From IMG/VR virus record IMGVR_UViG_2585427737_000005: DNA of 9,254 nucleotides. One strand, 5' to 3'. The notes below the pieces were generated by a model. The model was not told the DNA's origin, made no database searches, and was given only the letters and a program-made list of their open reading frames with translations. The translations under genes were made by a program, and so were the position numbers. The DNA comes from a virus. Lineage: Duplodnaviria; Heunggongvirae; Uroviricota; Caudoviricetes. Shown one piece after another: positions 3,302-6,720 of the stretch; the stretch's first letter is position 1; every line of letters begins with the position of its first letter.

Positions 3302-3769
3302 TCATCGAAGGCATTGCGTCCTAATGTATTCCTGAAGCGTTCTCAGTGCTGTTTGGTCGCGGATAATTCCGTCCCGGATATCGAGAACGTTTCGTCCAGC
3401 AACTGGAGAGAGTTCGACGGTGGCATCATTGCCCATGCCGGAGGCGCTGGAGGTTTCGGCAGAGGATGGCACAGGGCATTTTCCTTTGACGAGCACCCTG
3501 CCACCATTATCAAGCTTCCGCAGAAGAGCATCATTTTCAGCTTTCGCATCAGCTAACTCCTTCGTGTATTTTGCATCGAGCGCAGCAACATCACGCTGAC
3601 GCATCTGCATGTCAGTAATTGCCGCGTTCGCCAGCTTCAGTTCTCTGACATTTTTGTCGCGCTGGGCTTTGTAGGTAATGGCGTTATCACGGTAATGATT
3701 AACAGCCCATGACAGGCAGACGATGATGCAGATAACCAGAGCGGAGATAATCGCGGTTACTCTGTTCAT
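3302..3769 (-). CDS. rzpD: Rz-type i-spanin (lysis protein, inner-membrane spanin subunit)
   Basis: ATG at 3769 overlaps the endolysin stop (ATGA). N-terminal TM segment ([23 protein letters not shown]) followed by a charged coiled-coil-like region, as in lambda/21 Rz. The track ORF begins at an upstream GTG (3781) that lacks a Shine-Dalgarno. Confidence 0.85.
3343..3549 (-). CDS. rzoD: Rz1-type o-spanin lipoprotein, embedded in the +1 frame of Rz
   Basis: 68-aa ORF lying wholly inside Rz. Lipobox IMVAGC places the lipidated Cys at residue 19, followed by a proline-rich stretch ([11 protein letters not shown]). Strong Shine-Dalgarno (AAGGAG) 9-14 nt upstream of ATG 3549. Confidence 0.8.
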
Positions 3770-4263
3770 TGCTGACCCCACAAACAGATTTCACGCTCAA
3801 TCTCACGACGAGTCATGAGACCTTTCCATTGCTTACCGCCAGCATATGTCCAGCGACGTAGCTGATCACATGCGCCTTTGATATCGCCCTGGTTTATTTT
3901 GCGAAGAAGCGTCGATGTTCTGAAATTGCCAGCACCCACGTTGTAAACGAATGAGTAAAGAGCGCCGCGCATTGTTTCCGGTATATCGACTTTGATGTAC
4001 GGGTTAATTTGTCTGGCGACCGTGGCAAGGTCTTTATTCAGGAGGGCTTTGCATTCTGCTTTGGTATACGTTTTACCGAGCATGATGTCTTTTCCTGTAT
4101 GCCCGTGACATACAGTCCATACACCAACAATATCTTTGTATGGTATGTAGCTGACACCTTCCAGACCATCGTTACCACTTGGGCCAGTAATTAACACTGA
4201 TGCTATAGCAATTGCTCCGCCACCAATAGCAGCAGCAACGGCTTTTCGTAATGATGGAGGCAT
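3766..4263 (-). CDS. rrrD: SAR endolysin (phage-21 R-type lysozyme, T4-lysozyme fold)
   Basis: 165-aa ORF with an N-terminal Gly/Ala-rich signal-anchor-release segment ([20 protein letters not shown]) and the lysozyme core ([12 protein letters not shown]...). Start overlaps the holin stop (TAATG); stop overlaps the Rz start. Confidence 0.9.
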
Positions 4264-4478
4264 TATTCACCTCTCGCAGCCTTGCGCTTATCTTCTTTAA
4301 TCTTGAAATAAAGGTTTGTCAGGTACGTCAGCAGGCCAAATACCAGGCTACCCAGCACACCTATTGCTGCCCACTGTGAGGGCGTGACTTTATCGAGCAG
4401 CTGTAAAAACCAGTAACCGGCACTACCTGCTGAGGTGCCATAGGCGACACCCGTTGTTAACTTATCCATGGATTTCAT
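4263..4478 (-). CDS. essD: Pinholin (phage-21 S-type class II holin) with dual start motif
   Basis: 71-aa [29 protein letters not shown]... with two TM segments. Met1 (4478) and Met4 (4469) give the antiholin/holin dual start. GAGGTG Shine-Dalgarno upstream. The track ORF is extended from an upstream alternative start. Confidence 0.9.
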
Positions 4479-4604
4479 AACCCCACCTCGCAGACAAAGC
4501 GGGTGTAAATTGAGGGAATACAACGTATCGCAAAAAAGCAGAAACGTAACAGACTCGGAGTCAGTGAATAACTCAGGTATTGGGTTATCAGCTAATATCG
4601 AGAC

Positions 4605-4639
4605 TCAAAAAATGGAAAAACCCGCTCGACGGCGGGTTT
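4605..4639 (-). terminator. Rho-independent terminator candidate about 130 nt upstream of the holin (minus strand); weaker on plus strand
   Basis: Stem AAACCCGC / GCGGGTTT (4618-4625 and 4632-4639) with 6-nt loop. On the minus strand it is followed by UUUUUCCAUUUUUU. Confidence 0.55.
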
Positions 4640-5065
4640 AAGCTGTGTGACGAAGTAACCACTCTTAACAGCATAACCAATTTTTTACGTACGTAAACCA
4701 CTAAATGATATTTGCGAGAATGCTACCGAGTATTGAAAACACCACTACAAATACATAAGCAAATCTCAACAAATAACCAACAAATAATTTCCAGCGTTAT
4801 TTTTAGCTGGTTTAAATTGAATCTTCAAATTATAGAGCACTTATAAATAACAGCCATTAATATAAATTGGCTAATAGATTTATTTTTATTCAGCCAAGAG
4901 CCATGAATAGGATTCGATAGAAAAAGTTCAGATAAAAATAGAGATCTACTTCACAAATCAAATGAGAAACCAAAACTTACATCTTGAAATAATCACATTG
5001 ATTAGATGAATATTTATCGCGCAGTGACATCATTTTTTAATAATAGTTCAAAAAAAGGGCTCACG

Positions 5066-6148
5066 ATGAAAAAATTAACAGTGGCAATTTCTGCTGTAGC
5101 TGCATCAGTACTGATGGCGATGTCTGCTCAGGCAGCTGAAATTTATAATAAAGACAGTAACAAGCTGGATCTGTACGGGAAAGTTAATGCTAAGCACTAC
5201 TTCTCCTCTAATGATGCAGATGATGGTGATACTACTTATGCCCGTCTTGGCTTCAAAGGTGAAACCCAAATCAACGATCAACTGACTGGTTTCGGTCAGT
5301 GGGAATATGAATTCAAAGGCAACCGCGCTGAATCTCAAGGTTCCTCCAAAGATAAAACCCGTCTTGCCTTCGCTGGCCTGAAATTCGGTGACTACGGCTC
5401 CATCGATTATGGCCGTAACTACGGTGTAGCATACGATATTGGTGCATGGACCGACGTTCTGCCAGAATTCGGTGGCGATACCTGGACCCAAACAGATGTA
5501 TTCATGACTGGTCGCACCACAGGTGTTGCAACTTATCGTAACAATGACTTCTTTGGTCTGGTTGATGGTCTGAACTTTGCTGCTCAGTATCAGGGTAAAA
5601 ATGACCGCACTGACGTAACTGAAGCTAATGGTGATGGTTTCGGTTTCTCCACTACTTATGAGTATGAAGGATTCGGTGTAGGTGCAACCTATGCTAAATC
5701 TGACCGCACTAATAATCAGGTTATCTACGGTAACAACAGCCTGAATGCATCTGGTCAAAATGCTGAAGTATGGGCAGCTGGTCTGAAATATGATGCGAAC
5801 AACATCTATCTGGCTACCACCTATTCTGAAACCCAGAACATGACTGTTTTTGGTAATAACCATATTGCCAACAAAGCACAAAACTTCGAAGCTGTTGCAC
5901 AATATCAGTTCGACTTCGGCCTGCGTCCATCCGTTGCTTACCTGCATTCTAAAGGAAAAGACTTGGGTGTTTGGGGTGATCAGGACCTGGTTGAATATGT
6001 TGATGTAGGTGCAACCTATTACTTCAACAAAAATATGTCCACTTTTGTTGACTACAAAATCAACCTGATTGATAAGAGCGATTTCACGAAAGCATCTGGC
6101 GTTGCTACCGATGATATCGTTGCTGTAGGTATGGTTTACCAGTTCTAA
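5066..6148 (+). CDS. nmpC: Outer membrane porin NmpC/Lc (OmpC/OmpF/PhoE family), apparently intact
   Basis: 360-aa ORF from ATG 5066 ([23 protein letters not shown], signal peptide, then [17 protein letters not shown]...) ending in the porin C-terminal motif VYQF. AAAGGG Shine-Dalgarno 7 nt upstream. The track ORF (from 5006) includes a 20-codon upstream extension that is unlikely to be translated. Confidence 0.95.
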
Positions 6149-6310
6149 TTTGATTACTAAAAGATATGTTGTGGGAGGCTTTGCCTCCCCAACATATAAG
6201 TGGCTCCCTCAAGCCACTTCCTTTAGAAGCACAACCTTGCTTCTAACTATACAAACCTTCTGTTATATATTACCCTTTATTTTTGGGGGCGTTTCAACGC
6301 CCCATTTTTA
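6149..6310 (+). ncRNA. ipeX: Structured nmpC 3' UTR, IpeX-like regulatory RNA region
   Basis: Four stem-loops within about 160 nt after the nmpC stop (6164-6197, 6198-6219, 6222-6247, 6285-6303), the last followed by a T tract. IpeX was described as arising from the untranslated region between the nmpC stop and its terminator in DLP12 and PA-2. Identity rests on position and structure, not on sequence comparison. Confidence 0.4.
6285..6310 (+). terminator. Rho-independent terminator candidate for nmpC / 3' UTR transcript
   Basis: GGGGGCG-TTTCAA-CGCCCC stem-loop followed by ATTTTTA on the plus strand, lying between the convergent nmpC and quuD genes. Confidence 0.6.
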
Positions 6311-6336
6311 ATAACTTTTAGTAAATAATTGGCGTA

Positions 6337-6720
6337 TTAATTAGAGTTATTAACAACGATATCCATCTCTAACCGGATATCTAATGCCATTAACATCCCT
6401 TCAATTATGCCCTCAGCCTTCTGTAACCTTTTCCCGATATAACCATCAGAGCAGCAATGCTTACCTGCCAGTGACATGAATGTCATACCGACTACATAAT
6501 AATCTACTAATAAATCGTGCAAATCGCTGTTGTTCTTTTTCAGACGGGCCATGCACCCGCAAATGATCATCGCGTCATCGTCACAACATTGCGGGCGAGA
6601 TTTTACTTTTGAAGTAATTAATCCCTTAAAACCGGCGGCAATGGACGACCAGGTCACATCTTCATGATTATTAGCCGCCCACGCTCCCCAACGCTCAAGA
6701 ACCATCTGAATATCACGCAT
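6337..6720 (-). CDS. quuD: Late-gene antiterminator Q (QuuD-type, small Cys-rich Q)
   Basis: 127-aa ORF from ATG 6720 ([22 protein letters not shown]...) with GGAG Shine-Dalgarno 8 nt upstream. Cys clusters ([20 protein letters not shown]) suggest Zn binding. Product and position after rusA/ylcG match the DLP12 gene order from memory. Confidence 0.8.

Follow-up and report, generated by a model that had tools for sequence, protein, structure and literature searches.

The switching of late genes by Q antiterminators is textbook biology, and two close relatives of the system discussed here, those of phage 21 and of the Shiga toxin (Stx) phages 933W and Sp5, have already been characterised. Our subject is the region directly upstream of the lysis genes in a 9,254-nucleotide (nt) stretch of viral DNA (IMG/VR virus record IMGVR_UViG_2585427737_000005; the whole stretch is called the window below), in which a putative late promoter (PR'), a short leader and an intrinsic terminator of the tR' kind follow one another on the minus strand. 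The phage 21 record annotates a -35 element, a Q-binding element (QBE) lying between -35 and -10, the -10 element, the transcription start site (TSS), a pause element TAAGCTG at +2 to +8 and a mapped terminator at +3 to +50, and its leader folds into one hairpin that is followed by seven U. In Sp5, a prophage of Sakai, the PR' start was mapped by differential RNA sequencing (dRNA-seq; Sy et al. 2020, PMC7547250). The Sp5 transcript made without antitermination has its 3' end 258 nt downstream by Term-seq, and is cut by RNase E at +173, between GU and AUU (PMC7547250). For the lysis operon of the DLP12 prophage, Pasqua 2021 names a Q-type antiterminator, RpoE and Hha as the controlling factors, citing Rueggeberg 2013 and 2015. 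In the annotations examined, the position of PR' in the DLP12/434/PA-2 group, the routine presence of cargo between Q and PR' and a correspondence between promoter palindromes and Q proteins all appear to be unrecorded; the phage 434 record annotates no late promoter here, and the PA-2 record of 1986 assigns a CRP site to bases 1 to 21 of the transcript.

In our reading, a lambdoid prophage of the DLP12/434/PA-2 type has its Q-dependent late-gene switch here, on the plan of the Q21/Q933W family, and we put the probability of this reading at roughly 0.8. A sigma70 promoter at 4697-4670 would start a minus-strand RNA at about A4663, and without Q most polymerases would be halted by the hairpin 4639-4618 with its U tract (ends at 4617-4607), leaving an RNA of 48-57 nt and the lysis genes off. 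A Q of the QuuD type, made from the early rightward transcript, would bind TACGTACGTA and the A tract behind it (4695-4681) and load onto polymerase that is briefly held in the conserved +1 to +23 region. The Q-modified polymerase would then pass the terminator and transcribe the genes for holin, endolysin and Rz and the remaining late and morphogenesis genes. Sequence and homology establish the elements with their positions, their conservation across the family and the covariation of palindrome and Q clade; the activity of the promoter, its exact start, Q binding, pausing and Q-dependent read-through are inferred. The elements of this cassette are as follows.

4692-4697, minus strand: -35 element TTTACG of the predicted PR', aligning with TTTACG of the Sp5/933W PR'
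4670-4675, minus strand: -10 element TATGCT, aligning with TATCAT of Sp5, after a spacer of 16 nt
4663, minus strand: predicted start A, the base homologous to position 946 of the Sp5 record (our locus L006) and equal to MG1655 577,229 on the plus strand
4695-4686 and 4686-4681, minus strand: palindrome TACGTACGTA and A tract, candidate Q-binding element (comparative)
4641-4667, minus strand: conserved block TAAGAGTGGTTACTTCGTCACACAGCT, -4 to +23, kept in 933W, SfII and PhiR55_1 (similarity search)
4639-4618 with U tract to 4607, minus strand: stem-loop of an intrinsic terminator, the tR' analogue (terminator scan, fold)
4479-4606, minus strand: untranslated leader between terminator and holin (fold)

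Predicted late promoter, leader and terminator

The case for this promoter begins with homology to a late promoter whose start has been mapped. A sensitive DNA search with 4720-4480 finds, besides the relatives with a porin, about 300 lambdoid phages, Stx phages among them, that match 4698-4616 alone, and over this interval the window is 77-85% identical to the stretch that directly follows Q in 933W-type Stx phages. The 933W record (Y10775.2) labels the homologous stretch 'putative pR'' and 'putative tR'', starting inside the last Q codons. In an alignment of the window with 933W, SfII and PhiR55_1, similarity runs from GTTTACG (4698) through the U tract, and the flanks are unrelated.

The coordinates of Sy et al. 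come from an older genome version, so the Sp5 start was relocated in the current record through three landmarks. Position A946 follows TTTACG-16-TATCAT at a distance of 7 nt; from A946 to the final U of the second terminator, the hairpin GCCAGCC...GGCTGGC-UUUUUU, is exactly 257 nt; and counted from A946 the RNase E site falls at +173. When the 258-nt Sp5 transcript is compared with the window by blastn, nt 1-47 only are aligned, to 4663-4616 (E 3.7e-6). The homologous A4663 stands 7 nt past the -10 element, in sequence that is identical in MG1655. A start at this base places the hairpin at +25 to +46 and predicts a terminated RNA of 48-57 nt, with 24 bases from start to hairpin and a leader of about 50 nt. 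With the same degree of confidence as for the switch as a whole, we take the sigma70-type promoter at 4697-4670, starting near A4663, to be the PR' of the lysis genes. A sequence-only reading of this DNA had placed a promoter and terminator module resembling PR' and tR' directly upstream of the holin, and the homology of 4698-4616 to the TSS-mapped Sp5/933W PR' bears this out; its leader of about 200 nt gives way to the short one, as the homology-defined start puts the hairpin at +25.

The promoter belongs to a large family. A search of IMG/VR with the conserved block TAAGAGTGGTTACNTNGNCAC returned at least 119 contigs, which with the phage records make about 125 copies, and the family counts given below refer to the copies listed. 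The -10 element varies among them (TATGCT, TATCAT, TATCGT, TAATCT, TACTGT and others), while A at its position 2 and T at its position 6 are found in all but one of the roughly 125. Within the window the conserved late-promoter block occurs once, even when 3 mismatches are allowed. Over the entire module (4712-4542) the window shows no difference from DLP12 of MG1655, and the porin-essD intergenic region as a whole has 96% identity with that of DLP12 in E. coli K-12 and is 94-99% identical in phages 434, PA-2, ev243 and many others. Arrangement and sequence are shared by the viable phages 434, PA-2, ev243 and PhiR34_1 and by MG1655 DLP12, and the Q-porin-essD arrangement is present at a query coverage of at least 80% in 2394 of 5426 complete E. 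coli genomes. ETEC strains, ETEC-2265 and TW10722 for example, carry exactly this sequence.

The terminator consists of the hairpin AAACCCGC-CGTCGA-GCGGGTTT at 4639-4618, followed by TTCCATTTTTT. Its 8-bp stem folds with about -11.5 to -12 kcal/mol, and the distance from the U tract to the holin ATG, which the sequence-only reading had put at about 130 nt, measures 134-138 nt. Terminator-like sites as a class are not enriched in the window (12 against 8.6 +/- 2.4 expected). This particular hairpin is kept at a fixed distance from the conserved promoter in more than 100 related loci, and in most family copies a hairpin with a U tract begins at +25. Several lineages carry different GC-rich stems (CCUCGC/GCGGGG, CCCUGCC/GGCGGGG, UCCGCC/GGCGGG), each with its U tract, and between lineages the hairpin is swapped wholesale rather than varied pair by pair. 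Because it is either conserved or replaced by another GC hairpin with a U tract, the 4639-4618 hairpin is, judged from these comparisons, a real terminator, and the pattern is the one to be expected under selection for termination.

The early transcribed block begins with TAAGAG and contains TTCG at 4654-4651 and a small GUGG/UCAC inverted repeat. It opens like the pause element TAAGCTG of phage 21, and TAAGAGTGGTTACTTCGC from the window is identical to lambda PR' +1 to +18 (AACGATGGGTTAATTCGC) at 13 of 18 positions, including the TTCG at which lambda polymerase pauses at +16/+17. In coordinates, the comparison is of 4650-4667 on the minus strand with 189-206 of our lambda locus L128 (GGTTAATTCGC and GGTTACTTCGC). 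This likeness points either to shared ancestry of the pause region or to convergence on the needs of the host polymerase, and by lambda spacing the pause would be expected at +12/+13 (4652/4651). The block is a candidate for holding sigma-dependent pause signals, and this is the weakest part of the account. The GUGG/(C or U)CAC hairpin spans +2 to +17, and at its position +14 the copies have C or U alone, in keeping with a pair to G; it was not counted as evidence, as the flanking bases are fixed by the search pattern.

The same bases have been annotated for another role. The PA-2 record (J02580.1) labels AGTGGTTACTTCGTCACACAG as its CRP site, and this equals +1 to +21 of the predicted late transcript (4663-4643; 1730-1750 in our PA-2 locus L002). 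The T at +14 that makes a perfect TCACA half-site is found mainly in the DLP12/PA-2 group, and most relatives have CCACA. We rejected a CRP site as the conserved function of 4663-4643: most of the family has CCACA, the match to the left half-site is weak, and the block accompanies late promoters in the absence of a porin.

Several observations weigh against the switch as described. The window promoter matches the consensus at 8 of 12 positions (the Sp5 version at 9 of 12), for which reason the promoter scan did not list it, and the invariance of +1 to +17 in the IMG/VR set is partly a matter of construction, the block itself being the search pattern. The -10-like TAAGAG overlaps the start (-4 to +2) and misses its final T, which is geometrically awkward for a pause element, and downstream of +1 the window has no clean TAnnnT or convincing -10-like sequence. 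No start or 3' end near MG1655 577,229 or 577,276-577,285 is found in the supplements of Adams 2021 and Ettwiller 2016; Zhang 2018, on Stx pR' regions, gives no start, pause or terminator detail. The U tract of the window is broken up (UUUUUCCAUUUUUU). Finally, the homologous hairpin of Sp5, with a better U tract, lets polymerase through to yield the 258-nt StxS precursor in lysogens that have not been induced (PMC7547250), and accumulation of that transcript means that the first Sp5 hairpin must leak without Q.

The last of these points, together with the interrupted U tract, the stem mismatch GAGCTGG that 17 PA-2-type loci have among the matches listed, and the finding by terminator scan of no second terminator-like site between this hairpin and the holin, could be taken to mean that 4639-4618 is mainly a leaky attenuator, or a pause or RNA-processing element, and that silence in the lysogen comes from elsewhere. 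We think this unlikely. Different lineages have retained a GC hairpin and U tract in this position even where the sequence has been replaced, the equivalent in phage 21 is annotated as a mapped late terminator, and standard RNA-seq readily overlooks RNAs as short as about 50 nt, so that the results from Sp5 are no measure of how efficiently the first hairpin terminates. The PA-2-type copies (L002 at 1770-1772 and 16 other IMG/VR loci, corresponding to window 4622-4624) read GAGCTGG and not GAGCGGG in the 3' arm, and the C-U mismatch so created should make termination weaker.

Between the terminator and the lysis genes there are some further features of the leader. A 9-bp hairpin at 4482-4503 on the minus strand, CACCCGCUU...GAGGUGGGG, pairs the holin Shine-Dalgarno sequence GAGGUGGGG, directly ahead of the dual start. 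The holin has a dual start, with an ATG at 4478 and a second start at 4469, and a dual-start holin is also annotated in phages 434 and 21. In lambda S the sdi structure sets the ratio of antiholin to holin, and by analogy the Shine-Dalgarno hairpin may tune this ratio here. DLP12 of MG1655 is without 16 bp of the leader, CTGCTTTTTTGCGATA (window 4526-4541, minus strand), and the phage 434 match, which is 15 bp shorter than the query, may be missing the same stretch. An Rfam scan of the whole window with E up to 1 gave no match; there is no curated family for the leader or for the porin-derived RNA IpeX discussed below.

The Q protein and the palindrome at the promoter

The protein that would act on this promoter is encoded upstream.

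6337-6720, minus strand: Q antiterminator of the quuD type, 127 amino acids (Pfam PF06530, E 4e-53)

PF06530 is the sole Pfam family that it matches, and the Q proteins of 933W and PhiR55_1 belong to the same family. With Q of 933W-type Stx phages the window Q shares 78-81% identity, and PhiR34_1 and PhiR68_2 encode the very same protein (100%). Its match to the solved Q21 structures 6JNX and 6P18 is distant and significant (E 7e-7, about 30% identity over 80 residues).

The palindrome TACGTACGTA covers 10 bp from -32 to -23 and is centred at -27.5, that is, 15.5 bp before the -10 element, so that it overlaps the -35 element and the spacer. This position agrees with that of the phage 21 QBE, between -35 and -10. 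Across the family copies the palindrome is followed by an A or T tract. When the Q proteins encoded upstream are clustered at 70% identity they fall into eight clusters, and each of the eight goes with one palindrome class. The Q933/QuuD clade has TACG(A/T)(T/A)CGTA (TACGWWCGTA) and the variant TACAATCGTA. The class GCGTACGC is found with two Q clusters, one of which has the variant GCGCACGC, and TGGAATTCCA likewise goes with two; further classes are GCGGTCCGC, TGTTATAACA and TCGTTACGAA. The match between palindrome and Q holds where Q abuts the promoter (distances of -24 to +11) and where the two are separated by 0.6-2.9 kb.

It may be objected that the association of Q with a palindrome could reflect linkage of neighbouring sequences, a further point on the contrary side. 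The shuffled flanks speak against linkage, since the sequences 3' of the hairpin are shuffled among the Q clusters. The locus L013 illustrates it: from TAAGAG on it is identical to the window, yet it has the palindrome GCGTACGC and a Q that is 45% identical. The comparative evidence makes the palindrome with its A tract the probable Q-binding element.

A more tentative proposal, which we hold at somewhat less than even odds, is that the Q933W/QuuD branch reads a short palindrome at -27.5 with an A or T tract, where Q21 reads a direct repeat, and that a clade-specific code of this kind predicts which Q goes with which late promoter, Stx phages included. If the correspondence between palindrome and Q clade is true, the compatibility of Q and promoter would become predictable in mosaic Stx phages. 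On the proposal as a whole, QuuD would act at the sigma70 promoter 4697-4663 and not at the published sigmaE 'essDp', and about half of E. coli genomes would constitutively make a PR' leader RNA of about 50 nt.

The C-terminal end of Q differs between relatives. The last Q codons in the window (...IVVNNSN*), at 6337-6352 on the minus strand, derive from the insert described below; Q of 933W/Sp5 is about 20 codons longer and overlaps the -35 element of its own PR', and Q of PhiR55_1 ends earlier still. From these differing ends the C-terminal tail looks dispensable in this Q clade.

The porin insert and other proposed promoters

On the minus strand the gene order is rusA, Q, holin, endolysin and Rz, with a porin gene on the plus strand between Q and the holin. 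The genes and the remaining features of the region are listed here.

7305-6943, minus strand: rusA, of the lambdoid late region
5066-6148, plus strand, opposite to the late genes: porin of the nmpC/lc/OmpD type, 360 amino acids (Pfam Porin_1, E 1e-152)
4263-4478, minus strand: S21-type pinholin/antiholin, 71 and 68 amino acids (Pfam Phage_holin_2_1), the first late gene
3766-4263, minus strand: signal-arrest-release (SAR) endolysin (Pfam Phage_lysozyme)
3302-3781, minus strand: Rz (Pfam Phage_lysis)
6149-6320, plus strand: porin 3' untranslated region (UTR) with four hairpins (fold -60.3 kcal/mol, z = -9.3)
4829-4857, minus strand: ATGGCT-17 nt-TATAAT, a candidate promoter outside the conserved cassette
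5016-5049, minus strand: sigmaE-like GAACTA (5049-5044)-16 nt-TCACT (5027-5023), start at about 5016/5017 (position deduced)

The porin matches the lc porin of phage PA-2 and nmpC of phage 434 and DLP12, and in all porin-type relatives the Q stop codon is separated from the -35 element by 1639-1658 bp. Homology of Q with Sp5 ends at about 6350; what comes next in Sp5 is met again in the window at 4698. As the Sp5 promoter directly follows Q, the 1.64 kb from about 6350 to 4699 are an insert, made up of the porin, its upstream region (with a TATAAT discussed below) and its 3' UTR. The earlier suggestion that a porin moron lies between Q and the site at which Q acts is therefore upheld, with the promoter at 4697-4670, the porin at 5066-6148 and Q at 6337-6720. 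The insert does not interfere with the proposed mechanism, as Q acts in trans, and a porin on the opposite strand that is placed upstream of PR' is spared head-on late transcription.

The 3' UTR of the porin ends in a canonical plus-strand terminator at 6286-6303 (terminator scan). The stretch 6149-6320 is the probable equivalent of IpeX. IpeX has been described as a 167-nt RNA that is part of the DLP12 porin transcript (PMC12197685).

Looking across the IMG/VR copies listed, the junction between Q and PR' is a hotspot for cargo, with inserts of 0.6-2.9 kb in most lineages (our loci L005, L011, L013, L015, L017, L026, L027, L045, L047, L054, L058, L104 and others). The cargo is nearly all on the opposite strand and comprises porins, small lipoproteins, a KAP P-loop NTPase, a KwaB-like protein (Kiwa), an alpha/beta hydrolase and proteins without a Pfam match.

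The existence of the insert bears on where else the late promoter could lie. In phage 21, in 933W and in many others of the family the promoter abuts Q or runs into its end (distances of -24 to +11), and the sequence-only reading had considered as its alternative a PR' next to Q at 6200-6336, from which transcription would run antisense through the porin and meet 4639-4618 as a second barrier only. This is the least credible position of those proposed, and it is excluded to the extent that sequence allows. The one conserved late-promoter block lies elsewhere, no second block being present in the window at 3 mismatches, and 6149-6320 is occupied by the four-hairpin RNA of the other strand with its plus-strand terminator. 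Homology with Sp5 breaks near 6350 and resumes at 4698, and the promoter scan found no promoter-like site on the minus strand of 6150-6336.

The preferred position of the sequence-only reading was a sigma70 promoter with a perfect TATAAT at 4834-4829, 190 nt upstream of the stem, so that Q would act on a leader of about 200 nt running to 4639-4618 as in the lambda PR', 6S RNA and tR' arrangement. The features on which this was built are all there: the TATAAT, the ATGGCT at 4857-4852, the hairpin with its U tract and the holin ATG at 4478. The distance to the terminator is lambda-like, and the hexamer is present in MG1655 and in 30 of 34 unique porin-type relatives. Even so, a late promoter at this place is very improbable. 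The window holds three copies of TATAAT where dinucleotide-preserving shuffles give 4.0 +/- 2.0, so the hexamer is at chance level, and the promoter scan did not list this one. Its -35 element, already called weak in the earlier reading, agrees with TTGACA at three of six positions, has no TG extension to help it, and varies among the 34 relatives (ATGGCT in 17, ACGGCT in 8, others in the rest); within their intergenic region conservation is lowest at 4847-4808. Homology to late regions without a porin begins at about 4698, which assigns the TATAAT to the DLP12/porin-specific insert, and it is missing from every related late region that has no porin. No palindrome or other element specific to a Q clade stands beside it, and the Q encoded here is not of the lambda family. 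With the hairpin beginning at +25, the layout is that of the Q21 family in place of lambda's. The conserved promoter that is homologous to the TSS-mapped PR' stands between this TATAAT and the terminator.

A further candidate is the published DLP12 promoter. The reporter of Pasqua 2021 is described as '-121 to +650' and was made with the primers Pdlp12Fw/Rv, which map to MG1655 576,754-577,524 and so put +1 at 576,875, or about 5016 in the window. This lies just past GAACTA-N16-TCACT, and the motif at 5049-5016 is probably the published 'essDp'. It runs antisense to the 5' end of the porin, about 540 nt before the holin ATG and 350 nt upstream of the homology-defined PR'. That a published promoter appears to lie so far upstream, and that the cassette is reported to be regulated by RpoE, is one more consideration contrary to the placement of PR' at 4697-4670.

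It could accordingly be proposed that QuuD targets this sigmaE-type promoter and that 4697-4663 is a relic. In favour are the control by a Q-type antiterminator, RpoE and Hha described in Pasqua 2021, the position of the reporter +1, and a conservation of 99% among relatives, which is to be explained by the overlap with the porin 5' end. We consider this improbable. The motif lies in the porin insert and is absent from relatives of the same Q clade that have no porin, the palindrome that tracks the Q clade is at 4695-4686 and not at 5049, and a transcript from 'essDp' would still meet 4639-4618 with no site for Q loading nearby. Loading in the Q21 family, as far as it has been solved, uses sigma70. 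Genomic SELEX (systematic evolution of ligands by exponential enrichment; Shimada 2017), in the passages found, gives a peak for the RpoS holoenzyme between insH and essD and none for RpoE, at a resolution too low to separate the candidates. The two promoters are compatible with each other, so that the disagreement concerns only which of them is the target of Q, and 'essDp' may well be real and coexist with the sigma70 promoter.

With PR' at 4697-4670, a very widespread E. coli prophage region would have its late-gene switch correctly placed, and the published site of the DLP12 lysis promoter would have a testable rival, which is relevant to the role of the lysis genes in biofilms and in vesicle production. 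The general understanding of Q antitermination is unchanged by these findings.

Comparison with described systems

The Stx phages 933W and Sp5 are the nearest described relatives. DNA homology, at 77-79% identity, extends from the -35 element to the end of the first hairpin, with the same spacing of -10 element, start and hairpin and the same palindrome class (TACGATCGTA in 933W/Sp5, TACGTACGTA in the window). Q and promoter overlap in 933W/Sp5 (distance -12), whereas in the window the two are parted by the 1.64-kb porin insert, and Q has 127 amino acids in the window and 144 in 933W/Sp5, the C-terminal tails being different. A second terminator, at +258, and the small RNA StxS are features of Sp5. 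The window has neither and continues straight to the holin; no homologue of the 3' part of StxS is found in it, only nt 1-47 of the 258-nt transcript being alignable, from which it follows that an StxS equivalent is lacking.

Phage 21 (Guo, Kainz and Roberts 1991; Yin, Kaelber and Ebright 2019) has a Q of the same family and, like the window, an S21-type holin, a SAR endolysin and Rz. The elements follow in the same order and spacing, with the terminator ending near +46 to +50, while the promoters have no DNA similarity. The Q21 element consists of two 8-bp subsites in direct repeat, ATTGAGCA and AATGAGCA, from -27 to -12, in contrast to the palindrome at -32 to -23 with its A tract in the window. 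In phage 21 tRNA genes follow the terminator and nothing is inserted between Q and PR', unlike in the window. The comparison with the late region of phage 21 that the sequence-only reading had recommended agrees with that reading in the order of promoter and terminator, and departs from it in the leader, which is short (about 50 nt) and not about 200 nt.

Lambda works by the same logic, with a constitutive promoter, an early pause, a short terminated RNA and Q-dependent read-through into S, R and Rz. Its leader measures 194 nt and its Q belongs to an unrelated family, whereas the predicted leader of the window has about 50 nt. The -10-like pause element of lambda lies at +1 to +6, and its equivalent in the window would lie at -4 to +2. 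From the loci compared, a leader of about 50 nt is the norm of the Q21/Q933W family, and the 194-nt leader of lambda is not.

The last comparison is with the same locus as it has been published. In the work on DLP12 'essDp' (Rueggeberg et al. 2013, 2015; used by Pasqua et al. 2021) the claim is likewise that Q activates the lysis cassette. By the mapping of the reporter coordinates, that promoter is of the sigmaE type and lies at about 5049-5016, whereas the promoter proposed here is of the sigma70 type and lies 350 nt downstream.

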